Below are positions 8,399-63,135 of a stretch of DNA of 64,000 nucleotides, in pieces; positions within the stretch are counted from its first letter, which is position 1; every line of letters begins with the position of its first letter. The stretch is from IMG/VR virus record IMGVR_UViG_3300022231_000029, one strand, 5' to 3'. Both the position numbers and the translations under genes were made by a program. Source of the stretch: a virus. The notes under the pieces are model-generated. The model searched no databases. It was not told the origin of the DNA and saw only the letters and a program-made list of their open reading frames with translations.

Positions 8399-8409
8399 AA
8401 AGCCCTCCC

Positions 8410-9081: not shown

Positions 9082-9143
9082 AAAATTCCCTTTCTTCAAA
9101 GCTCTCACTTTTTCCAAAGCGGGCTTTATTCAAAGAGGTTGAT

Positions 9144-9168
9144 AAAAGTAGGGGAGCCGAAGCTCCCC
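9144..9168 (-). terminator. intrinsic terminator after major capsid gene
   Basis: GGGGAGC-ttcg-GCTCCCC then TACTTTT. Confidence 0.8.
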
Positions 9169-9183
9169 CACCAGGAAAAGAGA

Positions 9184-9783
9184 TTACTGAACCGGACGAC
9201 GGAGAAGACCCTTGAGCTGCGCAACGAAGCGGAGCGGATAGTTCGCACTCGGAGTCATAGCAGTGATCTGGCCAGAAGAAGCGCCTTCTACTTTCCAGAG
9301 CATGTAGAACTGAGTGAGAGGGCCGATATCAAGAGCCTGGTTCCCTTGGAACATAACAGGGTTGATATTCGCATCACCGTACTGAACGTAAGAATCAACT
9401 GTATCAGTGTCACCAGCGAGGGCAACCTGATGGCGGATTTTCGCGTTCACGAGGCGAAGCGGAGATTCCCAGTATTGCTTCTCAGCGAGCCAGAGCTGAA
9501 CGAACGAGTAGTTCGCGTAAAGAGCGAGAGCTTCGCGCTTAGCTGGATCGTTAGAAGAAGCATCAACCTGGATGCCCATGATACGGAAAGACTTGTTACG
9601 CTCAAGCTGTCCGTTACCACGGAGGTTTGAGAGAACAAGCGACTTACCTTGTGAGTTAGAGAAGAACTGACGCTCTTCCGTAACAACAGACGCGCTTGTG
9701 ATTTCAAGCGTGTCGTAAAGTGGTTGTTTGATCTGGTCACGAAGGGCAACACCGCCAACTTCGTTCAACTGTGTAGAAGCCAT
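9184..9783 (-). CDS. major capsid protein, single-jelly-roll type (inferred)
   Basis: QPLYDT motif, beta-strand pattern, terminal LKGLLRRPVQ; own promoter, AAGGAGG RBS and terminator. Confidence 0.6.
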   Translation of the reverse strand: MASTQLNEVGGVALRDQIKQPLYDTLEITSASVVTEERQFFSNSQGKSLVLSNLRGNGQLERNKSFRIMGIQVDASSNDPAKREALALYANYSFVQLWLAEKQYWESPLRLVNAKIRHQVALAGDTDTVDSYVQYGDANINPVMFQGNQALDIGPLTQFYMLWKVEGASSGQITAMTPSANYPLRFVAQLKGLLRRPVQ

Positions 9784-9882
9784 TTTTTCCTCCTTGAAAG
9801 GGATTTGCTTCGAAATAAAAAGAAATCAGTTTCTTCTTACGCCGGGTTCTCAGTTCTAGGATTGATACGCCCAACGATTTTT

Positions 9883-9916
9883 ATTGTATGCGGTTGCAAA
9901 AAAATTGCAACCGCAT
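9883..9916 (-). promoter_or_regulatory. capsid-gene promoter embedded in a 12-bp perfect palindrome
   Basis: TTGCAA(9910-9905)-16 nt-TACAAT(9888-9883); IR ATGCGGTTGCAA/TTGCAACCGCAT. Confidence 0.6.
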
Positions 9917-9928
9917 TTTTGTCACGTC

Positions 9929-11686
9929 TTAGAAATCAGCTTCTTCTTCACCATCATCATAGCTCACCTCGAAAGCAGAACCGAGGGAATCAGGATTTCT
10001 CGGAGCTGTCGGGATAGGGCCAGCGGAATCGAAGTCAGCATCTTGCATGTACGATCCAGACATCGGAGTAGTGATGTACCCGCCGAAGTCAGCATCAGTG
10101 ATTCCTTCCGGAGCACCGAAGTCAGACGAGTGGTAAGCACCCATCTGTGGAACAGCGATGATACCGCTCATCTGTGGAACCGCGATGATTCCCGAGAGAG
10201 CAGTCTGAGAACCGGCCATCTGAGCTGCTGCGAGGTAGAGTGATGTACCGAGGTTCACCACTGAAGCACCGATCACACCTTTAGCAATCGCCTTCGCTCT
10301 CTTATTACCTACGAAGTGATGAGCAGCACCAGCGATAGCGAGTGGAAGAATCGCATCGAAGTTCTTAGAAAGGAATGCGCCGAGAACCGGGATCTTAGCA
10401 ACAGATGTTTTCACTGTTGGGAAGAATTTTGTCATGGCATGTTTGATACCTTGAATAGCAGCACCACCAGCGAGGAGCCCACCGGCTTCCGCAAGTTCAT
10501 GACCAAGGTAATCCTGTGTGAAATCTTCGATTTTCTTCATAGCTCCTCCGAAAGATGGATTTGATTTAACTTTATGTTTTTTCGATTTATAAGAACGCTT
10601 CTTCTTAGAAGCTTTCTTAGATACAGACGGATGCGAAGAAGAAGCTTTCACTTTTCTGCGCTTCGAAGACTTTCTCTTCTTCGATTTTTTCTTTGTCGGT
10701 TTCTCTTCAGCGGCCATCATAGCAGCGGCCTTCTTAGAAACTTTGCGACGGTCGCCCCCGTTAGAAGATTTTTTCTTCGAGCCTTTACGCTTAGAAGATT
10801 TACGAGCTTTCTTTTTAGAAGCTTTTTTCTTCTTACGCTTAGGATTCTCACCAACGATCACCGATGGGTTAGATGCGATGATAGGGTTTGACTTCTTCTT
10901 GTGCGAACGACGCTTAGAAGCTTTCGCCCCTTTACGCTTATGAGTACGTCTCTTCGAAGAAGACTTACGAGCTTTACGCTTGATAGACTTTTTCGGAGTT
11001 ACTTTTTTCGCGGATTTTTTTCTCTTGTGGGTTTTCATCTTTTTAGATGACTTCACCTTTCTCGTCTTCTTGGCCACTTTCGCCGCCTTTTTCTTACGTT
11101 TTTTCTCGCCAGGAAGTTTGACGGATTTTACTTTTTTCGCTGAAGAGTTGAGCTTCTTGTAAAGTGCTTTGAGTTTCTTCTCAGCGCGCTTAACATCAGA
11201 TGCTTCTTTCTTCATCTCTCTGCGAGCTTCAGCTTCAGACATATCAAGGGAACGAACGTACCCTTTGTCTTTCATCTTCGCTTCTTCTTTCTTAAGCTTT
11301 TCAATGCGCCCACGAATTGTTTTCGTGAGATGCTCTTTCACCTTCTGAGCGGCCTTGAGTTTCTTCTCAACACCCTGGACGTTCTTTGCTTTCGAAAGAT
11401 CGTTCACAGCTTTGTTGAGTGTGCTGAAAGCTTTATCGGTTTCTTTCTGAGTGAAAACTTTCACCTTACCGATAACGATGGATGGGCCCTTGTTAGGGAT
11501 CTGTTTTTTAGCTCCGACCGGAAGACCTTTTGCGAGTCTTTCTTCGAGGGTCATCAGTCTTGAGCCACCTCCCTGCTTGCGATACACAGCAGAGGTAGGG
11601 TTCTTTTTGCGTTTTCTGAGAGAGCGCATAGGTTTCTCCTTCCTTTTTTTGCGAGACGGATTATTGTAAAAAATCTGTAAGTCCAT
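9929..11686 (-). CDS. Lys/Arg-rich putative genome-condensing core protein precursor with membrane segment and acidic tail
   Basis: H1/protamine-like KKxSK tracts, seven NP motifs, hydrophobic helices, SGIIAVPQM repeat, DADFG motifs. Confidence 0.7.
   Translation of the reverse strand: MDLQIFYNNPSRKKRKEKPMRSLRKRKKNPTSAVYRKQGGGSRLMTLEERLAKGLPVGAKKQIPNKGPSIVIGKVKVFTQKETDKAFSTLNKAVNDLSKAKNVQGVEKKLKAAQKVKEHLTKTIRGRIEKLKKEEAKMKDKGYVRSLDMSEAEARREMKKEASDVKRAEKKLKALYKKLNSSAKKVKSVKLPGEKKRKKKAAKVAKKTRKVKSSKKMKTHKRKKSAKKVTPKKSIKRKARKSSSKRRTHKRKGAKASKRRSHKKKSNPIIASNPSVIVGENPKRKKKKASKKKARKSSKRKGSKKKSSNGGDRRKVSKKAAAMMAAEEKPTKKKSKKRKSSKRRKVKASSSHPSVSKKASKKKRSYKSKKHKVKSNPSFGGAMKKIEDFTQDYLGHELAEAGGLLAGGAAIQGIKHAMTKFFPTVKTSVAKIPVLGAFLSKNFDAILPLAIAGAAHHFVGNKRAKAIAKGVIGASVVNLGTSLYLAAAQMAGSQTALSGIIAVPQMSGIIAVPQMGAYHSSDFGAPEGITDADFGGYITTPMSGSYMQDADFDSAGPIPTAPRNPDSLGSAFEVSYDDGEEEADF
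10142..10195 (-). repeat. 27-bp in-frame tandem repeat (SGIIAVPQM x2)
   Basis: CATCTGTGGAAC(A/C)GCGATGAT(A/T)CC unit duplicated. Confidence 0.85.
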
Positions 11687-11702
11687 TACTTCCCCTCCAA
11701 AA

Positions 11703-12095
11703 TTAACCGATGATACCTTTCAGATTGCGTATGGCGGCGAGATCCGAGTTCTCGTCGATTTCAAGGAGCCTCGAATCATTATACGCAACATTCGGATTTA
11801 CTAAAATAAGAAAAGGTGAATCCTTCAAGTGGTAGAGAACTGTAGGGCCCGAAAACTTATGATCCCACAACACCTCAAGGTCTTCCTGATCTCTGGAGTT
11901 CACGCGAATATATGTGATGTTCGGCACGAAACCAATCAGGTCAACTTTGTTTGACCGGAGAAGCTTTTCGTATTTCACACCCTCTGGAGAAGATTTTCCT
12001 TTCTTGAAGATCCGGACAGCTTTCAGAACGGCCTCAAGAACTATCGATCTTTGCTTGCCACTTCCCCACATAAGAATGTTTGCCCACTTCATCAT
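11703..12095 (-). CDS. small virion-module protein
   Basis: ORF within late operon; ends GIIG. Confidence 0.7.
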   Translation of the reverse strand: MMKWANILMWGSGKQRSIVLEAVLKAVRIFKKGKSSPEGVKYEKLLRSNKVDLIGFVPNITYIRVNSRDQEDLEVLWDHKFSGPTVLYHLKDSPFLILVNPNVAYNDSRLLEIDENSDLAAIRNLKGIIG

Positions 12096-12098
12096 GGA

Positions 12099-12776
12099 TT
12101 ACTTCCCGAGCCCAACGGCCTTCAACGCCTTCTCATTGATTCTCTCACCAATGAGACCACGATTTTTATACGCGAGATATCCAACACCGATGGCAGCAAC
12201 ACCCAACACCAGTGGAAGATTTCCCGCCACAAATGAAATGATCTTTGCGCCACCGGATACCGTGTTTGAAACAACGGATGCGGTAGTCTGAACAACAGAG
12301 TTAACGGTCTTCGCCGTATCCTTGGCCACCAGCTTCGTAGCATCCCAATATGTCCACTTGACATTAGTAGGGTTGATGAAGGCAGACGCAATCGACTTCC
12401 TCGAAGGAAGCATATTTTTATTCGAAGAGAAAGACTTCAAAAGAGAAGCTTTCACCTTGTCAGCAATCGAAGAGTTCGTGAGATAAGAAAAACCAACATC
12501 CCGAAGAAAGTCTTGGTAGTCCTCATCTGAGATCGTAGACGTATAAGCAGCATCAAGCTTCAGAGCATCCACAAACTGAGCATACGTAGCAGAAGGCTTC
12601 AGATCATTATAAAGACTTTGAATCCAGTTCTGACCCGCGACCAGCTCCTGAGCCGGAGTAAATGTTTTCGAAGATGATGAAAACCAATCAAGAGGATTCA
12701 GTGAGAATCCCATCGTTCCGAAGTCACTATTTGTGACAGGAGCGCCGACACCACCAAAATCCATTTTCTTTGTCAT
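12099..12776 (-). CDS. tail-anchored virion membrane protein with DFG leader
   Basis: MDFGG and SDFGTMG motifs; C-terminal TM LPLVLGVAAIGVGYLAY. Confidence 0.75.
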   Translation of the reverse strand: MTKKMDFGGVGAPVTNSDFGTMGFSLNPLDWFSSSSKTFTPAQELVAGQNWIQSLYNDLKPSATYAQFVDALKLDAAYTSTISDEDYQDFLRDVGFSYLTNSSIADKVKASLLKSFSSNKNMLPSRKSIASAFINPTNVKWTYWDATKLVAKDTAKTVNSVVQTTASVVSNTVSGGAKIISFVAGNLPLVLGVAAIGVGYLAYKNRGLIGERINEKALKAVGLGK

Positions 12777-12817
12777 GAGATAATCCTTTAGCTCAAACGA
12801 TTTCTATTGTATCACCC

Positions 12818-14962
12818 TTAGTCATCGGTTGCAACGTAGGCAAGCCCAGCGATCACAGCAGCGAGCCCGACCAGCACTCCAGCACCGGCACCCTTCTTCT
12901 GTCCAAAATTCAGGTTAATTTGATCAATCATTCCATCCGTAGGAGGAAAGTCCGGATAATATCCAGGGTAACGATCGTAAAGAAATGGAATCAGTGATGG
13001 CCCAAACTTCTGGATAAGGTCATCCCAATTCGTCTTCGCAACCGCATCAGCAATGTTTCCTGGAGTTCTTCCCGCCTCATCAAGAACATTCTCCACCGCC
13101 TGGCCAGTCTCTCGAACAACATTGTCAGCGATCTCAGAAACATTCTCCGGTGTTCGCTGAATCTCATCAGCAACATTATCAACCGCCCTCACTGTCTCAC
13201 GTCCGACATTCGTTGCGACCTCCGCAGCGTTGTCCTGAGTGCGTACAGCTTCATCCACGACGTTAGAGGCACCACGCGCCGACTCGCGAGCAATGTTCGT
13301 CGCAATCTGGGCAATGTTCTCCGGAGTTCTCGCCGTCTCAGAAGCAATCGCCTTGGCAAGCTTGGCAAGGTTTTCAGGTGAACGTCCAATTTCATCCAGG
13401 ACGTTCGATCCGATATTGGCAAAGTTTCCTGGAGCGCGTCTCATCTCATCAAGAAAGTTCTGCCCCATGTTCGCGAGAAAATTTGTATCCGATGATCCAG
13501 GAACAATCGAAATCTTTGACATGGCATTTGCCACTTGCTGAGCAATCTTTGCCCAATCAGTGTTATAAAGATCGGCCAGGTGAGCGTAAGTAATCGGAAG
13601 ACCTGTCTCTTTCTTCACAAGATAATCGACATAGTTCTGAAACTCTTTATCATGAATATCACTCATGGCATCCATGAGCGTTTTATCAGATCCCGGAACC
13701 TGAGAGAGCGTAGTTCCTGCCGACATGATGAGCTTTGCGGTAAAGGCACTATCAACCCATCCCTGCTTTACAGCTTCTTTCACTGTCTCAGATTTTGCTT
13801 CCCGAATCGCGGCCTGTTTTGAAACATCCTTGGCAAGATCCGTTGTCGCTGATTCAGCAAACTTTTCCATGCTTCCATAATTAAGTGATGAAGCATAAAG
13901 AACACCAGCAGAAAGCGCCGTTCTTCCGAGAACAGTTCCATTGAGCCCCGTCTCGTCACCGATATAATTTACCGCCATACCTTTAGCAATGTTCGATATG
14001 GCCGCACTGATAGTTCCGGCCGAAACAACAGTGAGATAAATCTTAAGTCCATCAATGATCCTGGATTTCCAATCAATCTGACGATCATGGTAAATATCAT
14101 CCGGAAGCGCCATGAGATTTTGACCGGACGTAATGAGTCCTCCAGAATATTTATCAAGGGTCATAATGAATGGCCCTAGAATCGCATCCTTCTTTAAAGT
14201 GTTGATGACAGCATTATCAAACTTCCCCACTTCCTTGTATGGAATAAGGGCGATCTGGCCATAGGCCTTCATGCCTTCGAGAATTTCTTTATCAGTAAGC
14301 TTTCCCTGAAATGTCTTATCCGGAATATCCATCACCTCTTCAAGCTTCTCGCGAATTGATGCCGGAAGAATAGGCATGACAGTGACATCGACAACAACAT
14401 TGATCGGACGCCACACAACTTCATTCACAACATTGCGAGCAATCCGGAACGCAGGACGAGCGACATTCTTATATGTGTACTCAACAGCGTTCGATGTCTC
14501 TTTTACAATGTTATGAGCGATCTCACCCGCCGTCTGAGTAATCTTTGAAATCGTTGGGCCAGGCTTTGTGACAACATTCTCTAAAGTAAGGATTCCGTCA
14601 GAGACAAAGTTTCTGATATCCGGAGGAAGAACACTCAAGGCAACATTTTTCGCCGCCGAATAAACATCCTCAGTGAAAGATCCGACTCCCTTCACAACCT
14701 TAAGAGCAGGCTCAGCAATCTTCGCCACTTCTTTAGCGACCTGGGAAACAAATTTCCCAAGCGATCGAAAGGCCTTACTCACGGCCTTCTTAATACTCTT
14801 AAACCATCCACCCATCTGCTGAGAACCATCATCGACAACTTCATAGTCACTATGAAGATGATAAACGTGCATGTATCGCTTCATGGCAGTCTTCTCAGGC
14901 ATTCTGCCGAGACCATCATAAAATTTGATCTTTGAATTTCTGCTTTTAGGAACAATGATCAT
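12818..14962 (-). CDS. large amphipathic-repeat virion membrane protein (714 aa; DNA delivery/scaffold candidate)
   Basis: QMGG followed by WFKSIKKAVSKAF amphipathic helix; 11/22-aa helical repeats; C-terminal TM. Confidence 0.7.
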   Translation of the reverse strand: MIIVPKSRNSKIKFYDGLGRMPEKTAMKRYMHVYHLHSDYEVVDDGSQQMGGWFKSIKKAVSKAFRSLGKFVSQVAKEVAKIAEPALKVVKGVGSFTEDVYSAAKNVALSVLPPDIRNFVSDGILTLENVVTKPGPTISKITQTAGEIAHNIVKETSNAVEYTYKNVARPAFRIARNVVNEVVWRPINVVVDVTVMPILPASIREKLEEVMDIPDKTFQGKLTDKEILEGMKAYGQIALIPYKEVGKFDNAVINTLKKDAILGPFIMTLDKYSGGLITSGQNLMALPDDIYHDRQIDWKSRIIDGLKIYLTVVSAGTISAAISNIAKGMAVNYIGDETGLNGTVLGRTALSAGVLYASSLNYGSMEKFAESATTDLAKDVSKQAAIREAKSETVKEAVKQGWVDSAFTAKLIMSAGTTLSQVPGSDKTLMDAMSDIHDKEFQNYVDYLVKKETGLPITYAHLADLYNTDWAKIAQQVANAMSKISIVPGSSDTNFLANMGQNFLDEMRRAPGNFANIGSNVLDEIGRSPENLAKLAKAIASETARTPENIAQIATNIARESARGASNVVDEAVRTQDNAAEVATNVGRETVRAVDNVADEIQRTPENVSEIADNVVRETGQAVENVLDEAGRTPGNIADAVAKTNWDDLIQKFGPSLIPFLYDRYPGYYPDFPPTDGMIDQINLNFGQKKGAGAGVLVGLAAVIAGLAYVATDD

Positions 14963-14965
14963 GAT

Positions 14966-17137
14966 TTAAACCTTGATGTTGAAAAGTTCCAGGAGGGCGT
15001 TAGTGAATGCAATCTCAGAAACCTTGTCAGCGACAAGTGCCGTAGCGATGTTCTGCTCCATGAGAGTAACTTTTGCCAGGAGTGTTTCCACAGCAACTTT
15101 TACATCCGGTCTCAAGTACCAGTTCGGATTCTCATTCACCCATTTTTGAAGAGCATCGGAAGGAAGGCCTCCCTCCATCGTAGCTCGCTGAAGAAGATAT
15201 TCGTAAGTAGGAGTAGGAATTTTTTCAAGCTCAGTATCAGCGATTGTTTTGAGTTCGTTCTTCGCGATGAATTCCGCATCAGACATGAGAACACTATTGG
15301 CCATAATGACTTCAGCGTTCACCTGATCCTGATAAACTTTATTCTGAGCGCGGATAGCTTCGTTCTGAGCAAAGATCCCGGCACTGGACTGAGCATTCTT
15401 CTTGAAGTCTTCAACCAGCGCCATTTCAAGTGCTGTGAATGCTCTCCAATATTCGTAGCCATTCTCGTAATAGAAAATACCCGTCTTCATTTTTCTTTCA
15501 AATTCAGCGAGTGCTGCTGGCCCTGAAATAATCGCCTGGCCCTGAAGGTATCGCTGGTATGCTTGATTGAAAGCGTAGTCGTTCTTATCTTTGTATGATT
15601 TCAGGAAAGCATCAATCTCCGTCATGGCCTTTCCCCAGGCCACAACTGATTCAAGCTGAAGTTCAGCAAGATACTCATACGCACCGATAGGCCCCTGAGA
15701 AACCGGATGAAGAAAAGGGAATTCCGATCCGTCATCATCTTTAGAGAACCAGCGAGTTTCATCCACGTAAGGAGAAGTGCTGATGACGACTCTGCGGGAG
15801 TAGATGATCTTACTTCCGATGTCGGAGCGAAGAGCGGCCACTGATTCCTGGAGATAGATGAGATTTTCCAGAAGATCAATGATGGAGTCCGGGAACTGAA
15901 TGAACTGAAGCTCATAGAGGCTTGTGGCATCAGAATACAGAAGACCATTTCTTACGCGCAGATCTCCGAAAGCGATTGCATTTGGATAATAAGGAGGGAA
16001 AGAAAACTGCGCCACGTTCTTGTCGTAGAAATCTTTCTTTCGAAGATTAAAAAGATTCGACCCATCGTAAGCAGAAAGAGAGTAATATGTTTTCCCGCTC
16101 ACGACGTATGGATAGTTCTTCCACGGGTAGGTGTAACTCTTCCCATTCGGAAGTGCGACCGTTCTCAGTTGATACCACTGATAGTATCCTTCAAGAGTTT
16201 TACTAATGGCCTGAGAATATGTTCTTCCAGAAGAGTCAGCAAGAGTAATGGATGCTGGAGCAGTTCCGGAGTAATTGAGATAATAGTTTGGTTCAAAGCA
16301 TGAGACAGCAGTGGTCTTCACATCGTTAACGATCTTGGCAGAAGCGAAGAGTTCCTTCGATTCATTTGATTCGACCTTGGCATTGATGACAAAAGCCCCT
16401 ACATAACCCAGAATCGCTTCACAGCGAATGATTTCAGGGACAGTATCAACCTGGAGATCCACGCGATAAACGTAAGCGAGCATCGGTGTAAGACTTTCAA
16501 CACCTGTGTACTTCATTTTGTCTGAAAGCATTGGCACAGTTTGATAATTCACCGGAACAGAAAATTCCTTCCCGATGGATGTCTCATAATCAGTGGCGAG
16601 GAGCTGTGGGCGCTTAGGAGTTACGAATGGTGTATTGAAGCCGTTCGTTTGAGTAGGGAGGACATTGATGATACAGTACCCCACCGAGTCTGGGCCTGCG
16701 CTGGGATACTTTGATGGATTTCTTGTGATATAAGAAACCCAATTCTTATTTTCAATCTCATCGAAAACAACTTTCAGAGCATCTTGCTGAATGCTGTTTT
16801 GCCAGTTGAAGGCAAGAGAATTTCTTTTGCAATACGCCCAGAGTTCTTCGGCCGCGGTGATATACCATGATGCCGGAAGATCGAAGACTTCAACAATTCT
16901 GTCGTAGCTTGTGACTTTGCCCGCAGTAGAGAAAACGGGATTGAGAAGAGAAAAGAGTTTCAACTTCTTCAGCTTAATCATCGCTTCGGCGGTGAGGTCG
17001 ATGTTTCCATAAAACATGGCGCTGAAGCGAACGTCATCAATCTCTTTTAAAATACGAACCCGGTGCCAATCAGCTACATGCTGAGCAACACCGAGTTCTT
17101 GAATCTTTGATTGATTGAGGTCAAAAGGAACGAGCAT
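14966..17137 (-). CDS. large virion protein of unknown function (723 aa)
   Basis: long ORF in late operon, Tyr/Pro-rich beta core and helical C-terminus. Confidence 0.75.
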   Translation of the reverse strand: MLVPFDLNQSKIQELGVAQHVADWHRVRILKEIDDVRFSAMFYGNIDLTAEAMIKLKKLKLFSLLNPVFSTAGKVTSYDRIVEVFDLPASWYITAAEELWAYCKRNSLAFNWQNSIQQDALKVVFDEIENKNWVSYITRNPSKYPSAGPDSVGYCIINVLPTQTNGFNTPFVTPKRPQLLATDYETSIGKEFSVPVNYQTVPMLSDKMKYTGVESLTPMLAYVYRVDLQVDTVPEIIRCEAILGYVGAFVINAKVESNESKELFASAKIVNDVKTTAVSCFEPNYYLNYSGTAPASITLADSSGRTYSQAISKTLEGYYQWYQLRTVALPNGKSYTYPWKNYPYVVSGKTYYSLSAYDGSNLFNLRKKDFYDKNVAQFSFPPYYPNAIAFGDLRVRNGLLYSDATSLYELQFIQFPDSIIDLLENLIYLQESVAALRSDIGSKIIYSRRVVISTSPYVDETRWFSKDDDGSEFPFLHPVSQGPIGAYEYLAELQLESVVAWGKAMTEIDAFLKSYKDKNDYAFNQAYQRYLQGQAIISGPAALAEFERKMKTGIFYYENGYEYWRAFTALEMALVEDFKKNAQSSAGIFAQNEAIRAQNKVYQDQVNAEVIMANSVLMSDAEFIAKNELKTIADTELEKIPTPTYEYLLQRATMEGGLPSDALQKWVNENPNWYLRPDVKVAVETLLAKVTLMEQNIATALVADKVSEIAFTNALLELFNIKV

Positions 17138-17154
17138 GAGAAGTGCTCCTGAAG

Positions 17155-17562
17155 TTAGTAGTCATCACCACGTTTCAGGAAAAAGAATACACCAAGAGCA
17201 AGTGCGCCGCCAATAGCGAGTTTCTTTTTGCCAGAAACAGCAGTAGTGGAGCTTGTTGCTTTCGCCACATCATCTGATGTCACAGGAGCGGAAGAAACGG
17301 TTTGCGTAGAGCTTGCTGTCGTCGCATCTTTTTGCATCATGAGAGTTTCAGAGAGAGCTTGCTTCTGATCATCATCAAGGTCATGCACCGATACCGGATC
17401 TTGTGAGTAAAATTCCATATCATCGGAATACTCCATTCCCATTCCGCCAAGAGGAGCACCGGGCTCCATCATTCCAGGCTCGCGATTGGCAATCCGGTAT
17501 TTCGTAAGTTCTTTCAGCTTGTCAGTGGGCGCTTGAAAGTCGCCCATGGTATATTTTCTCAT
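17155..17562 (-). CDS. tail-anchored virion membrane protein
   Basis: MGDF and LGGMG motifs; C-terminal TM LAIGGALALGVFFFL. Confidence 0.75.
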   Translation of the reverse strand: MRKYTMGDFQAPTDKLKELTKYRIANREPGMMEPGAPLGGMGMEYSDDMEFYSQDPVSVHDLDDDQKQALSETLMMQKDATTASSTQTVSSAPVTSDDVAKATSSTTAVSGKKKLAIGGALALGVFFFLKRGDDY

Positions 17563-17572
17563 TCAGAACTCC

Positions 17573-17989
17573 TTATTTTTTGATTACCTTGTAGATAACT
17601 GCCAGAGCAAGGAGTCCTCCGAGGACAGACGCGCCGATGATGATAGGGCCCTGATACTGAGTCCAGAATGATGGCCCTGTCGCCACGTAGCCAGCAGGAA
17701 GAACACCGGTAGGAAGAGTTCCTGTGGCCTGATATTGTGCTGCCTGCTCCGGAGTGAGTGTCACTTGAGATGTTTTTCCGTCTGCACCAGCGATATTGAG
17801 AACGAATTTCTCAACGGCCTTTGTAACAGCTTTCGTTGCTGACTTCTGAGCAGAGTCAACAGTCTTACTCACAAGATCAGACCAGAAATCACCCATGCCA
17901 CCAAAGTCACTTGAAACAACATTCGTGCCAATGCCCGCCATTGTGTATTTTTTCACAAGCGAGGGTTTTACCAATCTTGGTGATTTCAT
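17573..17989 (-). CDS. tail-anchored virion membrane protein
   Basis: SDFGGMGDFW motif; C-terminal TM followed by basic residues. Confidence 0.75.
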   Translation of the reverse strand: MKSPRLVKPSLVKKYTMAGIGTNVVSSDFGGMGDFWSDLVSKTVDSAQKSATKAVTKAVEKFVLNIAGADGKTSQVTLTPEQAAQYQATGTLPTGVLPAGYVATGPSFWTQYQGPIIIGASVLGGLLALAVIYKVIKK

Positions 17990-18448: not shown

Positions 18449-19042
18449 TTAGACTGCGAATTCTTGGCCAGAAGCTGACTTCATTTCAAACCCGATGGGA
18501 CGATCCTTGACGATAGCATCCAGGACAAGACGTTTCACCGGGCCCGGATTCATTGTATCAGTAATGTTGCGTTCATAGACGACAACATAGATGTGATTGA
18601 AAGATTGAGACTTATCGGAGTATCGAACACAACAAAAGACCGGCCGGATGCCAATACTCATGAGAAGAGTCGCGATGAGAAGAGACATGTCATCACAGTC
18701 ACCCATGGCATACCCAACATCGGCCATCATCTTGATCATCATATCCGGAGTCTGAAGCGACTCCGTGCCGACAGGATCTTTTACATAACGAATGTTTTTT
18801 TGAACAAATGTACCAATCGCTCTTGCCTCATCAAGATAGTGATGAGAAGGAATTTTTTCGTAGTTCAGGATATTGGTAGCAAGACGCTTAACGAGAGCAC
18901 TTTGAGAATACTCCTGAGCAAGCTTTTTCATGACAGCGACAGTATCAAGGTTGCCCTTGATACCGTCACCGACTTTACTTATTGTTTGATCAGGAAGTTT
19001 ACCGAGATTCTGGAGAGGTCGCTTTCTGGGAAAGATAATCAT
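18449..19042 (-). CDS. transglutaminase-like cysteine protease (putative maturation protease)
   Basis: catalytic triad pattern GDCDD...FNHIYV...VLDA; IRYVKDP motif. Confidence 0.85.
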   Translation of the reverse strand: MIIFPRKRPLQNLGKLPDQTISKVGDGIKGNLDTVAVMKKLAQEYSQSALVKRLATNILNYEKIPSHHYLDEARAIGTFVQKNIRYVKDPVGTESLQTPDMMIKMMADVGYAMGDCDDMSLLIATLLMSIGIRPVFCCVRYSDKSQSFNHIYVVVYERNITDTMNPGPVKRLVLDAIVKDRPIGFEMKSASGQEFAV

Positions 19043-53287: not shown

Positions 53288-53983
53288 GTGAATTACAAGG
53301 ACGCAATCAATAAGGTTCTGGAGCATGAAGGTGGGTTTGTAAATAACCCGCTCGATAAAGGCGGCGCTACCAATTGGGGTGTCACTCAAGAGACCTACAA
53401 CAACTACATGACCTATATCACCGGGAAGCCTTATGTTTCCACGGTTGCTGAAATTCAGGCCATGCCTCTTGATACCGCCATCAAAATCTACAAGCTCTTT
53501 TATTGGGATGTCATCTGGGGCGATAAAATCAAAAAGTATTCTGTCGCTGCTGCCATCTTCGATCAAGCTATCAACCGTGGCCCTGATGCCGCTTTGAAAC
53601 AAGCGCAGAGAGTTCTGGGGATCACCCAGGATGGACTGATGGGTAACAATACCCTTACAGCTCTCAACAATGCTACCGCCACCACGGACTCAGAAGCAAA
53701 ATTTCTCAGTAGCTACCTCCAGGAATCAATTCTGGCCTACAATACAATCGTCAAAAATAACCCATCTCAGTCTGTGTTCTTGAATGGCTGGCTGAAGAGA
53801 GTTGAATCTCTCCGAAGCTATGTGAATTCATACATAGGCTCCATTAACGCCACCACTGTCGGAATCGGTCTTGGGGTTGTCATTCTCCTGGCAGGTAGCT
53901 TTTTACTTTACTCAAAACGTGACGTGATTGCTGGCTACTTTAATAAGACCAGTGCTCCGGCACAAGTAACGAAGGCCGCATAA
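53288..53983 (+). CDS. glycoside hydrolase family 108 lysozyme with PG-binding domain and C-terminal TM helix
   Basis: LEHEGGFVNNPLDKGGATNWGVTQ; FDQAINRG; QSVFLNGWLKRV; TM VGIGLGVVILLAGSFLLY. Confidence 0.9.
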   Translation: MNYKDAINKVLEHEGGFVNNPLDKGGATNWGVTQETYNNYMTYITGKPYVSTVAEIQAMPLDTAIKIYKLFYWDVIWGDKIKKYSVAAAIFDQAINRGPDAALKQAQRVLGITQDGLMGNNTLTALNNATATTDSEAKFLSSYLQESILAYNTIVKNNPSQSVFLNGWLKRVESLRSYVNSYIGSINATTVGIGLGVVILLAGSFLLYSKRDVIAGYFNKTSAPAQVTKAA

Positions 53984-54947: not shown

Positions 54948-55071
54948 TCTCACGTTCTACTTCATCGCCTTGGGGATATTCGGTGTTTACTATTATAATC
55001 GGAAAAAGAGTACCCCATCATCTACTTCTCAGGTCGCCGGGGAGTATTCCAGCTTCGGTGTTCGGGGATAG
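54928..55071 (+). CDS. small membrane protein
   Basis: GTG 54928 with GGGGAG RBS; TM FYFIALGIFGVYYY then NRKK. Confidence 0.55.
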   Translation: MKSVKLDLTFYFIALGIFGVYYYNRKKSTPSSTSQVAGEYSSFGVRG

Positions 55072-55232
55072 CACAAATGGCCCATCCTTGGGCCTCACTC
55101 ATCCATAAGCGACAATCTTCCTTGATTATTCCCTCATTATAACTCATATCATCCATCACATTCTTACAAATTATCTCCGGTGAGTATCTTTGTCGTATAA
55201 TAGAACGAGAAATTATATCCCCGGAGGGACGT

Positions 55233-56894
55233 GTGAACTCATCTGATCTTTTCTTCAAAACCATTCGATCAAACCCCACTGATGACGAATTCGAAAGAGA
55301 AACGATTCGAGAAGGAACCACAAAAATTTCAGACCCGGAATCAGGATCTTTCGTCCTGGTAAAAAAAGTGAAAGGAAAATATGAGTGCTGGCCAGAAGGC
55401 GATCAATTCAAGATCACCAAGCACCCCAATCGCAGTCAGGCCTTTTCATGGTCAAACGCCTATCTCCGGAAAGTAAAAAGAAATCCCGTCAAGAAAATCA
55501 AATCGAAAAAAAGAATTTTAAAAAAGAATAATCCTAGCACATGGAAGGAAGAAGGATTCATTCTTCAATCACAAGGCATATCCGCTGGCACATCCTATCG
55601 CAAGCTAACCATCATCGCTCTCACTCCCGACGATGGCGACAAAAGAGAAATGGCCGGCCAGTATCGGTTTATATCTAAAGACGGAGAAGATCACATCTCT
55701 GTTCAGGATTCTTTTACGATTGATAAATTTCAACGTAAAGGCCTTGCGAGTGCCGCCTATTCAATGGCCGAAAAAATTTTCGGTAAAAAAATAGAGCCCT
55801 CAGACTCTTTCGGCGCTCAAACCGAAGATGCAAAAAAATTGTGGAATCGCCCGAACAGGCCATTTGGAAAATCAAACCCTAAGAAATTATCTTTATCCGA
55901 GAAAGAATTTTCTGATCTTTACGACAAACATGACGGCTACTACCCCGCCATGGCAAAAGACCTGGGCTGGTGGGACAAGAAAGAATCTACCCACCTCACC
56001 CAGCTCGCCGAAAGAAGAAACTGGCTTGAGAAGTATCCACCAAAGAAAGTCGATAAGAACCATGACGAGTATTCCGATGATGTCATCACTCTTTATGGAC
56101 AGGACTGGTCAATCGAAAAAATTGCCAAAAAGATCCGCATCCCGATTGCTGACGTGAAAGAAGTTTTGATTAAAAATAAAATAAAGATTCGTGATCAATT
56201 CAAGAAAAGAAGTAACCCAAGACTCATCAGCGTTCGTGCCACTGCTCTGAAATATATTCCTGCTCTCGCTGATTGGTACTCAAAGCTTCTCGCTACGAAA
56301 AACAAAGAAGACTCCATCAAGTTCATTCAGCAGATCATCTGGCTCCAGGGACTCTTTTTCTATGCGCCATCGAATGCCCTGATGACTGCACTTATGTTCA
56401 ATCACCTTTTTGATACGCCATCGAAAATGGACATGAAGCTCATGGTTGAATCGACAATGAAGTATTGTAATGATTCCGTTGATGACGTGATCTTCTTTCT
56501 TCAGGCAGTTTCTGAAAAGCCTGACACGTATGCCTCAAAAGTTCTTTCCATCTTTTCCGGGAAAGAATCTCGCATTCCTGGTGTGTCTTATGAAGAGATT
56601 CTGAAGATGATGACTCGTGACTATGTTATCAATTTCCTCGACCTGTCTCCTTCTGCAGCTCTCATCTACTGCACAAACTTTATTCGCTCAACCGAGATGG
56701 CGGGAGAAAGTGTAGGGCCTCTGAAAAATTCAATTCTTGAAAGACTCCTTGAGCGCATGAAGCTTTCCGGCGACGATCCTATGAGCGAAGAAATTAAAAC
56801 CATGATCAATGACCAGTTCATTGGTGCGGAAAGAATGATTGCTGAATCAACTGAAATTATCTCATCAATAGGAGTATCAAATGAGCGAAATTAA
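55233..56894 (+). CDS. multidomain NP-delimited protein with GNAT-like and HTH-like modules
   Basis: five basic-x-NP motifs at domain borders; FQRKGLASAAY...QTEDAKKLW (GNAT); WSIEKIAKKIRIPIADVKEVL (HTH). Confidence 0.75.
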   Translation: MNSSDLFFKTIRSNPTDDEFERETIREGTTKISDPESGSFVLVKKVKGKYECWPEGDQFKITKHPNRSQAFSWSNAYLRKVKRNPVKKIKSKKRILKKNNPSTWKEEGFILQSQGISAGTSYRKLTIIALTPDDGDKREMAGQYRFISKDGEDHISVQDSFTIDKFQRKGLASAAYSMAEKIFGKKIEPSDSFGAQTEDAKKLWNRPNRPFGKSNPKKLSLSEKEFSDLYDKHDGYYPAMAKDLGWWDKKESTHLTQLAERRNWLEKYPPKKVDKNHDEYSDDVITLYGQDWSIEKIAKKIRIPIADVKEVLIKNKIKIRDQFKKRSNPRLISVRATALKYIPALADWYSKLLATKNKEDSIKFIQQIIWLQGLFFYAPSNALMTALMFNHLFDTPSKMDMKLMVESTMKYCNDSVDDVIFFLQAVSEKPDTYASKVLSIFSGKESRIPGVSYEEILKMMTRDYVINFLDLSPSAALIYCTNFIRSTEMAGESVGPLKNSILERLLERMKLSGDDPMSEEIKTMINDQFIGAERMIAESTEIISSIGVSNERN

Positions 56895-57258
56895 TCCCGA
56901 CTCTAAAGAATCTGAAATTGCTCAAAATCTTTTTGCTGGTGGAGTAAACGCCAGCGCAAAACTTTTGATTGCCTTGGGAGAGATGAAGCTGCCCTTCCTG
57001 AAACTCCCCATCATCAATCAACTCTTCTGTTATGTGATCAATAAAATGGCCGGCAAGGTGAGCGGCGAGGGTGAACTTCATATCAGCTTCAAGTTTATTG
57101 ACGATGATGGAGCCGAGAGAAATGGACAGTACAAAGATTCTTTGGAAAGATTGAACCAGGTCGAAGCCGATCCAACTGCTACACAGGAGCAAAAAGATGA
57201 AGCACTCAATGAAACAATTCAGCACATGGGTAATGCTATTCGTTTCCCTCGCCGTTAG
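56881..57258 (+). CDS. hypothetical protein (i-spanin-like position)
   Basis: AGGAG RBS; overlaps lipoprotein gene; C-terminal coiled coil. Confidence 0.55.
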   Translation: MSEINPDSKESEIAQNLFAGGVNASAKLLIALGEMKLPFLKLPIINQLFCYVINKMAGKVSGEGELHISFKFIDDDGAERNGQYKDSLERLNQVEADPTATQEQKDEALNETIQHMGNAIRFPRR

Positions 57259-57661
57259 TTGTGCAAGGGTTCCGGTTAAAGATACTGAGTGGTGCGGGGA
57301 TCTCGCCGAACAAGGTGCCGCTTGTTTTCATACTCACAATGAATCACAGAGACGTGTTCCGAAAGCTGAGTGGGATAAAGAAAGAAAAGGAATGTTCTGC
57401 ACGAAGTCTGATAACTTCATTGAATGGCAGGCCATCATTCTGAAGCTTTGTCGTGCTTCCGGAAATCGCTGTACGTTTGAAGATAAGAAAAAGATCGTTG
57501 CCTTCTTCGGAAGAGTGAAGGATTTCTCCGGTGAGCAGTACGCATTCTCTCTTGAGCTGATGGAAAAAAATATTCAGCTTGATCAGGATCTCAACGAGAT
57601 AGAAAGGGATATTGAAGATGTTGAGCAGCAACTTGACAGGGATGGTGTCTCTTTGATGTGA
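57197..57661 (+). CDS. Cys-rich lipoprotein (o-spanin-like)
   Basis: lipobox LAVSC; multiple Cys; overlaps upstream gene. Confidence 0.65.
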   Translation: MKHSMKQFSTWVMLFVSLAVSCARVPVKDTEWCGDLAEQGAACFHTHNESQRRVPKAEWDKERKGMFCTKSDNFIEWQAIILKLCRASGNRCTFEDKKKIVAFFGRVKDFSGEQYAFSLELMEKNIQLDQDLNEIERDIEDVEQQLDRDGVSLM

Positions 57662-58453: not shown

Positions 58454-58491
58454 AAATAAAAAAGGGAGTCATTCGACTCCCTTTCTTTTTT
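58454..58491. terminator. bidirectional terminator
   Basis: AAAGGGAGTC-attc-GACTCCCTTT flanked by A- and T-runs. Confidence 0.85.
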
Positions 58492-58986: not shown

Positions 58987-61284
58987 TTACTCATTGAGAC
59001 GGAGCGGAACAGTGTCGAAGCCGCCCTTCACGATCTTTCTCTTGGTATAATAACCCTGAAGCTTCTTTATCGAAACATTATACTCGCTTTTCAAATACTT
59101 CTTCTTCTTTCCTGTCTTTTTAAGGTGCTCTGCTTCTCTGCGTTCGTCAACCTTTCGTTTTATCGTAGGGTCGTTTTTCATAGTAACAAACTCACCCATT
59201 CTGAGGGCCGTCTTGAATGTCGCAAATTTCGGCTTCTCCACCACCGAGATATTTCCGTTGTCTCCCTGGAGGTATTCCATGAAGTCCTCCATCGTAAAAG
59301 CATTTCGAATACTCTTGTAATCGAATCCCTTCATCGTGAGCTTCATCGGTTTTGCTTTCCCGTCTTCATCAATGATCCCTTCATTCACATACGTCTTAGG
59401 AAGAAGGAAACACGCTGATCGACACTTATATTCAAGCTTCATGGCACCCAGCTCTTTACCCGTATCCATCGGCTTATTCGTAAAACATGAATCCGTATCC
59501 GCATAATATATGTGCTCGTATCCCGTTAACACAAATTGCTTGTGAAGATGGATACGAGAATAACTTGTCACAAAACACGCGATAGCCGGATTTGAGAACA
59601 TCGTCTTCGACTTCTCTGGCTTATCCGCCAGACGTAAGTATCCATGAGGAGTTTCGATCTCAGCAATCAAAATAACTTTACTATCTTTGCCGTCATCAAT
59701 CACAAGTTTCGATCGGTCTTTATTAATTCCCATTCTTCCGTAACAAGAATTCATAATGAGCTTCATCACCATCTGAGTCACGTTATCTCCGCGCTCTTTG
59801 GCCTCTAGCCTCATTTGATAAACTGTCTCAACGAACTTTTTAAACATGAAGCCCGCATTCTCGAAAGCAGCACCTTCATAATACTCCAGGATCTCACATC
59901 CCAAAGTCTTCGCATATTCAAGCTCTGCCTTTGTCCAATGACCAGAGAACACTCCGACCGGGAAGATAAGACGTTCCTCTCTCTTCACAGGAAGAGGAGG
60001 AGCATAGATGTTCTCAGGCACTCTCACTTTACAATGCCAGATGGCCATATCGTGTGAGTCGTATTCTTTCTTCCCCTTCATCCAACCCAGGAACTTATTC
60101 GGAAACTCATGGTTTGCCATGGCCCAAGGAAAGAGACTATTCACATCGTAGTAATAAAGCCAATCACTCTCATCTATGTCGCTATCAAAGATCGGTTTAA
60201 AGACTTCCGTTCTTCCGCCGAAATATGCCTGGCGAACAAAGCCATCGACGTTTCCTTCATGAAGAAAAATATCATCATCCGGAAGTGACTCAAGATCGTG
60301 ATCCATGAACAATCGAAACACTTCCACGGCTTGAGAAGCTGTCGTCCACTTTTTCTTGCAGGATGAAATGAGAGGAGCATTAAAGAACGCTGTAATACAT
60401 TGATGCAAGCTTTTACAGTCATGGTGAAGATAAGTAAGAAGATCTTTCTTCTTGAAGATCGGATAAGTCATCTCCTCAAACCAATCGTTGTAAACCACTT
60501 CTTTCTTCTTATTGAGCTTCTGCATATACGGAGCAACATAGGACAGTTTTCCTACATGCGGGAACAGTGCAAACCTTTCGGTGTTCCAATACCTTAACCT
60601 GTCAGATCTACCTCTTATGGACTTCGTTAATCTGGTTACTTGTTTTTTCGAATAAAAGACCACACATCTTTCATCTTTCATCATGTCATCAAGATAATCA
60701 ATTTCATTATAAACTTGCTTGATGAAAAGGAAGTCCATCTCTCCCTTGAGAGTTTCAACATTGAAAGCTTTCGTGAGATTGGCCAGGCCAAATGGAAGAA
60801 GAGCTGCTGAATCACGGAAGGTAATCTTAATCGGCAACTCCAGGCCATACTGCTCTTGCTTGTCTACAGTGAGAGTCGCATCGAATGAAAGAAGTGAGGG
60901 CCCTCTGGGAATGATATTCTCAATCAGGACTTCTCCTGAGAGGAATAAAGACTGAAGGAAGAATAGAAAGTCAAACTTACCTCCGAAGTGAGCAACAAAG
61001 TTTTTAATCCCTTTCTCAGATGCAAGCCTAAAACATCGAATCATCAATGCCTTGATGTCATTCGTTTCGAGCCAGTCTTCTTTCATCTCTTCATCAACCC
61101 AATAAAGCTCCCCGCAAATGTATTCAATCCAATCCTGTGTCTCAATATCAATCGTCGCAAAATCAGGAACAGATGTTTTCTGTGAAGATGACTCTGGTTT
61201 AAAAGGACGCAACTTTACTGGCGAGTACCATTCTCGAAATCGCGTAAAAAATGTTTTCTTCCTTCCGGAGCGTGTTCTTTTCAT
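58987..61284 (-). CDS. polB: protein-primed family B DNA polymerase (pPolB)
   Basis: Exo I DIET, Exo II AHFGGKFD, Exo III YLHHD; YFGGRTE; DVNSLFP; TPR1-like insert; KLIMNSCYG; YADTDS; PKTY. Confidence 0.93.
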   Translation of the reverse strand: MKRTRSGRKKTFFTRFREWYSPVKLRPFKPESSSQKTSVPDFATIDIETQDWIEYICGELYWVDEEMKEDWLETNDIKALMIRCFRLASEKGIKNFVAHFGGKFDFLFFLQSLFLSGEVLIENIIPRGPSLLSFDATLTVDKQEQYGLELPIKITFRDSAALLPFGLANLTKAFNVETLKGEMDFLFIKQVYNEIDYLDDMMKDERCVVFYSKKQVTRLTKSIRGRSDRLRYWNTERFALFPHVGKLSYVAPYMQKLNKKKEVVYNDWFEEMTYPIFKKKDLLTYLHHDCKSLHQCITAFFNAPLISSCKKKWTTASQAVEVFRLFMDHDLESLPDDDIFLHEGNVDGFVRQAYFGGRTEVFKPIFDSDIDESDWLYYYDVNSLFPWAMANHEFPNKFLGWMKGKKEYDSHDMAIWHCKVRVPENIYAPPLPVKREERLIFPVGVFSGHWTKAELEYAKTLGCEILEYYEGAAFENAGFMFKKFVETVYQMRLEAKERGDNVTQMVMKLIMNSCYGRMGINKDRSKLVIDDGKDSKVILIAEIETPHGYLRLADKPEKSKTMFSNPAIACFVTSYSRIHLHKQFVLTGYEHIYYADTDSCFTNKPMDTGKELGAMKLEYKCRSACFLLPKTYVNEGIIDEDGKAKPMKLTMKGFDYKSIRNAFTMEDFMEYLQGDNGNISVVEKPKFATFKTALRMGEFVTMKNDPTIKRKVDERREAEHLKKTGKKKKYLKSEYNVSIKKLQGYYTKRKIVKGGFDTVPLRLNE

Positions 61285-62655: not shown

Positions 62656-63135
62656 TTACCACTCGTCGTCGTCTTCCTCTTCTTCTTCCTCTTCCTCGTC
62701 CTCGTCGTAATAATCATCATCTTGGTCGTCGTCATCGTAATCGTCGTCATCACCGTCATCATCGTAACCATAATCGTCAATTTCTTCTTCCTCTTCTTCC
62801 TCGTAACGGGAAGAAGGATTTACCTTGACATTCGCGGATGCAATGTGCTTGTTGAGCTGTTTTGTCATATCCATCATGAAGATCGAGCCAGCGGGAACCT
62901 TCAGGGTCTTGCTCCCCATTTTCGCTGTCTTCGAAGGCTTCAAGATCGTCTTCAGAGTAGCATCAAGCTTGATGAACCGGGCATTACCTGGAACCTGAAG
63001 CTTTTTCTTCTTGATGTATGCCCAGATTTTTTTAGTGACATCAGTTCTCGGCATAGGGCCCTTACCGATGACTGCGGCCAGAGCGGTGGAAATTTTCACC
63101 GGCTTCTTCAACGCACTCCCTTTCTTCTTGCTCAT
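62656..63135 (-). CDS. SWIB/MDM2-domain protein with very acidic C-terminal tail
   Basis: LKKPVKISTALAAVIG...MPRTDVTKKIWAYIKKKKLQ...IKLDATLKTI...IFMMDMTKQLNKHI; poly-D/E tail. Confidence 0.88.
   Translation of the reverse strand: MSKKKGSALKKPVKISTALAAVIGKGPMPRTDVTKKIWAYIKKKKLQVPGNARFIKLDATLKTILKPSKTAKMGSKTLKVPAGSIFMMDMTKQLNKHIASANVKVNPSSRYEEEEEEEIDDYGYDDDGDDDDYDDDDQDDDYYDEDEEEEEEEEDDDEW

Follow-up and report, generated by a model that had tools for sequence, protein, structure and literature searches.

Here, we analysed a 64,000-nucleotide stretch of viral DNA (the window; IMG/VR record IMGVR_UViG_3300022231_000029, from a source contig of 72,763 bp) and found that its open reading frame (ORF) at 55233..56894 on the plus strand encodes P0001, a modular protein of the phage polyvalent type whose modules are separated by conserved seams, a description that we hold with high confidence. 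The frame is the sole long one in its span and begins with a GTG start 4 nt past a GGAGGG ribosome-binding site. Each seam is a short peptide built around an Asn-Pro (NP) pair with a basic residue two positions before the Asn. Judged from the alignments, the seams are a peptide-level linear motif that is lineage-wide and under strong constraint. Below, P-numbers denote proteins, P0001 being the window ORF, and L-numbers denote related contigs.

P0001 contains exactly five NP pairs, at N14, N84, N100, N215 and N328, and their contexts (RSNP, KRNP, KNNP, KSNP and RSNP) always show Lys or Arg at position -2 from the Asn. The initial annotation, made from the letters of the sequence, had placed five basic-x-NP motifs at the borders between a small beta domain, a basic linker, a GNAT-like acetyltransferase, a helical/helix-turn-helix (HTH) region and an all-helical C-terminal domain. 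Indeed, this layout was reproduced both by an AlphaFold2 (AF2) model, for which a checked alignment of 14 rows served as input, and by boundaries drawn independently from homology. The model contains folded blocks at residues 20-83 (five strands and a helix), 110-205 (four long strands and two helices), 281-314 (three short helices) and 334-544 (ten helices), together with a low-confidence helical piece at residues 223-267. A HMMER search of 1.84 billion representatives with P0001 returned 223 matches, and in HMMER and local jackhmmer searches segments of the protein matched independent proteins at boundaries of about 19-87, 92-218, 218-275 and 273-545. The predicted local distance difference test score (pLDDT) drops below 50 at residues 1-16, 86-98, 210-255, 270-273 and 323-329; each of the five NP pairs falls within or at the edge of one of these segments, and the folded blocks contain no NP, so that the [KR]xNP motifs sit in the low-confidence linkers of the model. 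The next secondary-structure element starts 5-25 residues past the seam Pro.

Could such a pattern arise by chance, or as a by-product of a composition rich in Lys, Asn and Pro? P0001 is indeed Lys-rich (64 K), NP is mildly over-represented in proteins generally, and the motif was found at 2.1x expectation in 139 unrelated matches. Upon shuffling of the P0001 residues, at least five NP pairs appeared in 0.25-0.3% of trials, but at least five [KR]xNP motifs in 0 of 100,000. Composition predicts 0.17 such motifs where five are observed, and the remaining window proteome (18,344 residues) stays at expectation, with five motifs against 4.0 expected. Across twelve family proteins (8,660 residues) we counted 80 NP pairs against 22 expected and 64 [KR]xNP motifs against 3.8 expected, a 17-fold enrichment, with positions conserved at 20-40% identity. 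Together with the invariant NP columns and the absence of motifs from recognised domains described next, these enrichment statistics effectively refute chance, to which we assign almost no weight.

The family seam follows the consensus [V/K/R/I]-K-[S/N/P]-N-P, with K at -2 in 57 of 79 sites. In the eight sequences of alignment A3, four of the nine invariant columns are two NP pairs, and in the twelve sequences of alignment A5, which covers the C-terminal domain, the invariant columns are N3, P4, Q47 and F116. The NP of seam 2 is invariant in A3 and conserved in alignment A2; the Asn and Pro of seam 5 are invariant in A3 and in all 12 aligned family members of A5. When five module hidden Markov models were run on 16 proteins, 0 of 85 motifs fell inside recognised domains, which make up 40% of the residues (binomial p 1.5e-19, a value that overstates independence because some of the proteins are close relatives), and nine non-motif NP pairs fell inside them. 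The seams bracket module blocks and none occurs between tandem copies of one repeat. The motifs are highly conserved and absent from folded domains, so that neither of the sequence-level outcomes named in the initial annotation as speaking against it was observed.

Two further origins of the pattern were rejected. Seam codons vary synonymously (Asn as AAC or AAT, Pro as all four CCN codons, Ser as TCA or AGT at equivalent sites), which rules out a repeat or a recombination joint acting at the level of DNA. Of the 417 prolines in the family, 98 follow an Asn, 3.8x over composition, while Asp-Pro (0.46x) and Ser-Pro (0.63x) are depleted; in the 139 unrelated matches all four cap residues are mildly preferred before Pro, as is usual. 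This depletion, together with the distance to the next helix, rules out a generic helix N-cap.

Is the motif restricted to P0001 and its orthologues? The initial annotation had pointed to the same motif in the core protein at 9929, and we confirmed three [KR]xNP motifs there against 0.19 expected, besides four further NP pairs. The SWIB-domain protein of the window carries one motif (0.03 expected), followed by an acidic tail of about 50 residues, nearly all Asp, Glu or Tyr, and the order of SWIB domain, seam and acidic tail is the same in the L001, L004 and L007 orthologues. In relatives, a DUF6321 protein shows a basic-x-N-P seam between its N-terminal hydrophobic anchor and the domain in 4 of 4 sequences examined (KRKSNP, KRRSNP, VKSNP and, in L006, KILPNP with the Lys at -3 from the Asn). 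Several family members have the motif 2-5 residues from the initiator Met (MKKNP, MKSNP, MKIKSNP, MKHKKQNP), and others have it 9-12 residues from the C-terminus; upstream of P0154 there is no ORF that could be a split-off part. That seams occur at chain ends, and at borders in proteins without homology to one another, points to a reader acting in trans.

The first seam of P0001 closes a leader of the type [F/L]-D-x-F-F-x-A-[V/I]-x-x-V-K-x-N-P, which is common to P0001, P0002, P0119, P0152, P0153 and the 456-residue orthologue in L007. We also observed that the core-like protein begins M-D-L-Q-I-F-Y-N-N-P, resembling the P0001 leader D-L-F-F ... S-N-P; the core-like and slot proteins may share a leader peptide, a likeness based on very few residues.

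The gene for P0001 occupies a slot of constant position in every related contig recovered (16 positional orthologues). The shared order is a minus-strand HTH_3 gene, the lysis cassette, in most contigs a DUF6321 gene of opposite orientation, the slot gene and a few small ORFs, beyond which the minus strand of the relatives carries a 150-residue ORF, PolB, an ORF of about 400 residues, SWIB, Dam and a PIF1 helicase. Between these phages, PolB identity is 63-78%, whereas the shared parts of the slot protein reach merely 20-40%, and slot proteins range from 430 residues to 1450 residues, the latter followed by a 1231-residue ORF. In the window, the slot holds GNAT and one helical unit. P0002 has about 190 residues of CxxC zinc ribbons in place of the GNAT and helical modules, P0059 and P0154 have ART-PolyVal (23.9 and 30.9 bits, against a cut-off of 31.2), P0045, P0050 and P0074 have arrays of helical units, P0146 has a fused PcfJ-like and leucine-rich-repeat module that is a separate ORF in L007, and P0046 and P0093 have nothing between the shared parts. 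These swaps fall exactly at NP motifs, so that the gain and loss of modules at NP, an expectation that came with the original reading of the sequence, was seen in the homologues. From these gene comparisons, the slot, which in this lineage of phages of about 60-74 kb is flanked by the lysis cassette on one side and by the protein-primed replication module on the other, is hypervariable.

Two irregularities were noted among the relatives. The contig of P0045 has overlapping slot genes at 9719..14071 (1450 residues) and 14043..17738 (1231 residues), P0045 being without the C-terminal helical anchor; both ORFs may together represent a single giant protein that is frameshifted or split. In L004 (13563..17063, minus strand) and L011 (13536..16988, minus strand) the protein-primed polymerase reaches 1150-1166 residues, against about 765 residues otherwise; the long polymerase of L004 gives a Pfam intein-splicing match, and for that of L011 DNA_pol_B_2 alone is listed.

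By sequence and fold, the middle module of P0001 is a GNAT acetyltransferase, with its activity predicted. Its motif A reads Q-R-K-G-L-A at residues 166-171 (x-R-K-G-L-A in the family consensus), and it ends in the family signature R-P-F-G-K-S. Neither P0001 nor its residues 88-222 matched Pfam GNAT even at E 0.05-0.1, and the curated profile was reached only transitively, via homologues P0003-P0008, among which P0004-P0008 (E 5e-42 to 1e-27) lie above threshold for PF00583, alongside NUDIX, ART-PolyVal and RNase_T. The region (about 92-218) has more than 100 homologous proteins, from stand-alone forms of 114-135 residues to giants of 1000-2470 residues that hold three to four copies and carry PF18760, NUDIX and RNase_T; a local jackhmmer search collected 260 copies of the module in 140 proteins. 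Structural comparison of residues 103-209 supports the assignment, since GNAT or MYST acetyltransferases account for 48 of the 50 rows listed (Z 7.7-5.0). The best match is E. coli YjdJ (Z 7.7, root-mean-square deviation 2.4 A over 77 residues), next come B. subtilis RibT (Z 7.4) and a ribosomal-protein-alanine N-acetyltransferase (Z 7.2), and AAC(6')-Iy falls within Z 7.7-7.0. Thus the GNAT-like call of the initial annotation held. The Z values are modest, and YjdJ, RibT and RimI/RimJ-type enzymes share motif A with the module but just about 10-15% identity, the N-terminal beta1-alpha1-alpha2 part of the canonical fold not being evident in the P0001 model.

This mini-GNAT, which starts G-D-W-x-K-E-G-Y and ends R-P-F-G-K-S-E, is widespread: it occurs in P0004-P0014, in about 100 other matches and in L010 at 8001..14690, often with 3-4 copies per protein in giants of up to 2470 residues that also contain NUDIX, ART-PolyVal and RNase_T. 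On its contig of 179 kb, the P0004 gene closes a plus-strand operon. In local MAFFT trials, about 6 was the largest number of GNAT fragments that could safely be added, and a 70-row composite alignment misplaced fragments and was discarded.

The P0001 case defines four undescribed modules. The small beta domain is an independent module in P0037, P0045, P0046, P0059, P0074 and P0093. The helical unit (P0001 residues 218-275) forms tandem arrays in relatives, with up to seven copies in P0050; the repeat, of about 57 residues and reading K-R-K-Y-F-F-T-E ... H-K-Y-P, was seen in P0050, P0045, P0074, P0146, P0154 and at 55887..56048 of the window, and it has no Pfam match and is so far undescribed. 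P0001 itself gave no Pfam HTH match, and the segments homologous to its HTH-like module in P0045, P0074 and P0154 gave sub-threshold matches to HTH_7, HTH_23 and HTH_28, with HTH_SB also sub-threshold among the relatives' segments. The predicted HTH-like and all-helical parts are both present in the model, the former as three helices with pLDDT >90. Modelled alone, the C-terminal domain reached a pLDDT of 89.6 and a predicted template modelling score of 0.87. Residues 273-545 define a small family that comprises P0002, P0037, P0046, P0059, P0093, P0119 and P0122, as well as P0152-P0154 and the L007 ORF.

Searches for known relatives of these parts returned little. With P0001 as query, sequence searches of Pfam, PHROGs and PDB did not rise above noise, tblastn against 50,697 phage records gave no match, a word-index search with residues 277-553 recovered the query itself only, and a fold search with the full-length model was uninformative beyond weak GNAT rows. 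The C-terminal domain has no convincing structural match (Foldseek E at least 0.12; ESM Atlas template modelling score at most 0.38), which does not make its fold new. The best VIA-align rows for this domain were TetR-family regulators, at a Z of 5.7 that is below the noise level for helical bundles.

How might the seams be used? Tentatively, we favour the reading that they would be processed proteolytically at or next to Asn-Pro. A trans-acting reader would recognise the seam. In analogy to adenovirus precursor proteins or the internal proteins of phage T4, processing would set free the effector modules of the slot protein, remove short peptides from the ends of chains as leaders and tails, release the DUF6321 domain from its membrane anchor, separate SWIB from its acidic tail and cut the core protein into basic peptides. 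This could take place during particle maturation or, after delivery, in the host, where a freed GNAT might acetylate a host or phage protein. Processing of this kind would explain the trimmed-end pattern and give each motif-bearing protein a sensible product. Cleavage at Asn is known from FlhB, where Asn-Pro is the bond cut, and from reovirus mu1, which is cut at Asn-42 (PMC3207474).

Several points weigh against seam processing. Cutting at the seams, association with the virion and acetyl transfer are all predictions for P0001. No protease was linked to the seam motif, the sole candidate being a distant, weak transglutaminase-fold match (E 0.006), and Pro at P1' is disfavoured by most proteases, with retroviral proteases an exception. 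The neighbours of the P0001 gene are lysis and replication genes, with no recognisable particle genes among them, and given the gap in front of it, which holds a divergent gene in relatives, its expression may or may not be late. The AF2 model stands on a shallow alignment of 12-14 rows, and the family counts come from a small set of about 16 sequences that includes several close relatives. Across the wider GNAT family, where the NP of seam 4 is not conserved behind the module, NP occurs in 27 of 206 C-terminal flanks, which is background; we therefore discarded the idea that NP generally accompanies the polyvalent GNAT module and regard the seam as a property of the virus group, not of the module.

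The seam could instead be a docking or targeting motif of an uncut protein, a possibility that we take seriously but consider doubtful. The motif-bearing proteins (cargo, core, SWIB and DUF6321) would then be loaded onto the genome or into the particle by one partner that binds them all, for example a component of the particle interior, the membrane or the packaging machinery, or DNA itself as with SPKK or AT-hook turns, and several copies of the motif would raise avidity. All conservation evidence fits this equally well, including the motifs at the extreme termini; 3 of the 4 motif-bearing proteins are of DNA-associated types (SWIB, HTH and the Lys/Arg-rich core protein), and the flanks of the seams are often basic. 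However, what follows the Pro is not consistently basic, and the acidic residues found there at seam 1 and in SWIB speak against a simple DNA hook. Moreover, the specificity resides in the positions before the Asn (K at -2, a hydrophobic or basic residue at -3), as in protease subsites. No binding partner was identified. Less probable, in our judgement, is a passive joint, i.e. a linker, basic and flexible and containing an Asx-Pro turn, that is carried along as modules are duplicated and shuffled and that insulates folding units without ever being read. The modules are clearly shuffled, the seams lie in linkers that are disordered in the AF2 model, and polymorphic toxins are known to have short conserved joints where variable modules meet. 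But an unread joint sits poorly with an Asn and a Pro that stay invariant where residues of folded domains vary, with the depletion of the other cap residues before Pro, and with the absence of nucleotide-level conservation of a kind that would favour recombination. It would also have to account for motifs at conserved positions in the non-homologous, non-shuffled SWIB and DUF6321 proteins and for motifs at N-termini with nothing upstream.

In a further reading, Asn cyclisation would break the Asn-Pro bond with no protease involved, as in asparagine peptide lyases. Several seams do read N-P-T, and Asn is the nucleophile in ten peptide lyase families, five of them viral coat proteins; the bond is that of FlhB (PMC3207474). 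We nevertheless regard self-cutting as very improbable, as the known lyases keep the Asn in a folded site, while the seams of P0001 lie in low-confidence linkers without conserved catalytic neighbours, and sequence searches with P0001 found no similarity to lyase families. Uncatalysed Asn-Pro cleavage in peptides takes weeks to months.

How does P0001, with its seams as putative processing sites, compare with known systems? Phage polyvalent proteins combine a GNAT of the RimI-like clade with a neighbouring ADP-ribosyltransferase (ART), and for them likely processing, and delivery with the DNA, have been proposed (Iyer, Burroughs, Anand, de Souza and Aravind 2017, PMC5512222). These proteins resemble P0001 in carrying several unrelated, swappable domains on one phage polypeptide with fast turnover of architectures. 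At least two unrelated domains of disparate activity on one polypeptide of a phage or conjugative element mark the kind; P0001 has five modules in a context with an endolysin and a protein-primed PolB. Its domain repertoire agrees as well, its GNAT homologues occurring with PF18760, NUDIX and RNase_T and its orthologues P0059 and P0154 with ART-PolyVal. Because of its five independent swappable modules, the GNAT-next-to-ART pattern and the phage context, P0001 is, by sequence and model, a small member of the phage polyvalent-protein kind. It differs from the proteins of that account in being much smaller (553 residues), in lacking a MuF or portal-type anchor, in whose place stands the undescribed helical domain, and in having no peptidase domain: neither a zincin-like metallopeptidase (MPTase) nor an assemblin-like or other peptidase is embedded in P0001 or present in its immediate neighbours. 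Its host virus is protein-primed and probably contains a membrane, whereas polyvalent proteins belong to tailed phages or plasmids. Thus the polyvalent strategy, the GNAT-ART association and the idea of processing are already known from PMC5512222, while an Asn-Pro seam or a strict K-x-N-P motif is, as far as we could find, not described there. Full-text literature searches likewise found no published description of the K-x-N-P seam motif.

A closer parallel to the seams themselves may be drawn with phage T4 and adenovirus. In T4, the internal proteins and Alt carry a capsid-targeting sequence cut by the gp21 prohead protease, and in adenovirus pVII, pTP and pVI are cut by adenain. As here, one consensus peptide recurs near the N-termini or inside unrelated particle-interior or DNA-bound proteins; in our case the shared short peptide stands at termini and module borders of the cargo, core, SWIB and DUF6321 proteins, for which a particle location is predicted. 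The motif differs, being K-x-N-P here, L/I-x-E in T4 and (M/L/I)-x-G-G/x in adenovirus. The asparagine peptide lyases N6 (FlhB/YscU, Asn|Pro-Thr-His) and N7 (reovirus mu1) are alike in the candidate Asn-Pro bond and in the viral setting, but they share no sequence or fold similarity with P0001, whose seams lie in flexible linkers and not in a folded self-cleaving domain.

The neighbourhood of the gene is compact, and the features are listed in Table 1. The plus-strand block that contains P0001 opens with a lysis cassette of a small membrane protein, the endolysin and small membrane ORFs, is closed by a strong terminator-like hairpin at 58461, and converges on a minus-strand block of a protein-primed PolB, an ORF of about 420 residues and the SWIB-domain protein. 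Apart from this hairpin, a scan for promoters and terminators stayed at chance level. The nearest cultured relatives of the window polymerase are tectiviruses, at 28% identity, and scans of viral and genome contig collections with the polymerase found no relatives. The sequencing runs listed as sharing sequence words each carried a small share of them, and no RNA run was among those listed. A 286-bp non-coding gap (54948..55232) separates the lysis genes from the P0001 gene; in L003, L004, L006, L007, L011 and L012 it is filled by an oppositely oriented DUF6321 gene, which is lacking from that place in the window and in L001. Because of the gap and of this opposed gene in relatives, the P0001 gene probably heads its own transcription unit. 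Of the late plus-strand operon originally claimed, the plus-strand block therefore stands, while membership in an operon and late expression are weaker than stated. Two genes downstream of P0001, a 154-residue ORF (57197..57661, plus strand) has a signal peptide ending in a lipobox-like L-A-V-S-C and may encode a lipoprotein, e.g. a spanin or an exclusion protein.

Table 1. Position of P0001, its modules and seams, and of related or neighbouring features in the window
Feature	Residues	Coordinates	Strand	Remarks
Whole ORF, P0001	553 aa	55233..56894	+	modular polyvalent-type protein
N-terminal leader, D-L-F-F ... R-S-N-P	1-15	55233..55277	+	ends in seam 1 (N14-P15); pLDDT <50
Small beta domain	20-83	55290..55481	+	five strands and one helix; AF2 pLDDT 82-93
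Seam 2, K-R-N-P	82-85	55476..55487	+	directly past the beta-domain helix
Seam 3, K-N-N-P	98-101	55524..55535	+	end of basic linker, ahead of GNAT
Minimal GNAT acetyltransferase module (activity predicted)	103-210	55539..55862	+	
Seam 4, K-S-N-P	213-216	55869..55880	+	between GNAT and helical repeat module
Helical module of about 55 aa	219-272	55887..56048	+	one copy; low AF2 confidence
Three-helix HTH-like module	279-318	56067..56186	+	AF2 pLDDT >90
Seam 5, R-S-N-P	326-329	56208..56219	+	between HTH and C-terminal helical domain
C-terminal all-helical domain	333-546	56229..56870	+	ten helices, 215 aa; conserved anchor of the family
Lys/Arg-rich core-like protein		9929..11686	-	7 NP, three of them [KR]xNP (KKNP, KSNP, KSNP)
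Transglutaminase-fold ORF, candidate		18449..19042	-	sole protease-like candidate seen; Pfam Transglut_core E 0.006, below curated cut-off
Endolysin		53288..53983		GH108 and PG_binding_3; in plus-strand block
Protein-primed family B DNA polymerase		58987..61284	-	PF03175, E 1e-56
SWIB-domain protein		62656..63135	-	SWIB at 10-84; PF02201, E 1.5e-19
K-V-N-P seam of SWIB protein		62815..62826	-	between SWIB domain and acidic tail

More speculatively, we suggest that K-x-Asn|Pro might be the cleavage site of a new maturation system in a large group of uncultured, protein-primed and probably membrane-containing bacterial viruses, a proposal made by analogy that we regard as possible rather than likely. 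Such a system would employ a new protease specificity, possibly that of a transglutaminase-fold enzyme, or an assisted form of Asn-lyase chemistry, and its precursors would be the effector polyprotein, the histone-like core protein, the SWIB protein and the membrane-anchored DUF6321 protein. If true, bacterial viruses would have their own equivalent of adenovirus core maturation, one that sets an acetyltransferase free in the host in finished form, and a protease or lyase acting before Pro after Lys-x-Asn would represent a new specificity and a possible reagent. If the seams are read at all, by cutting or by docking, they would offer a simple sequence handle for the proteins that this poorly known virus group carries in its particles and injects into hosts, without the need for homology to known effectors, and the hypervariable slot would be a catalogue of anti-host modules (acetyltransferase, ADP-ribosyltransferase, zinc ribbons, PcfJ-like/leucine-rich-repeat). 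Even without any cutting, P0001 shows that the polyvalent-protein strategy extends to protein-primed phages of the non-tailed type.

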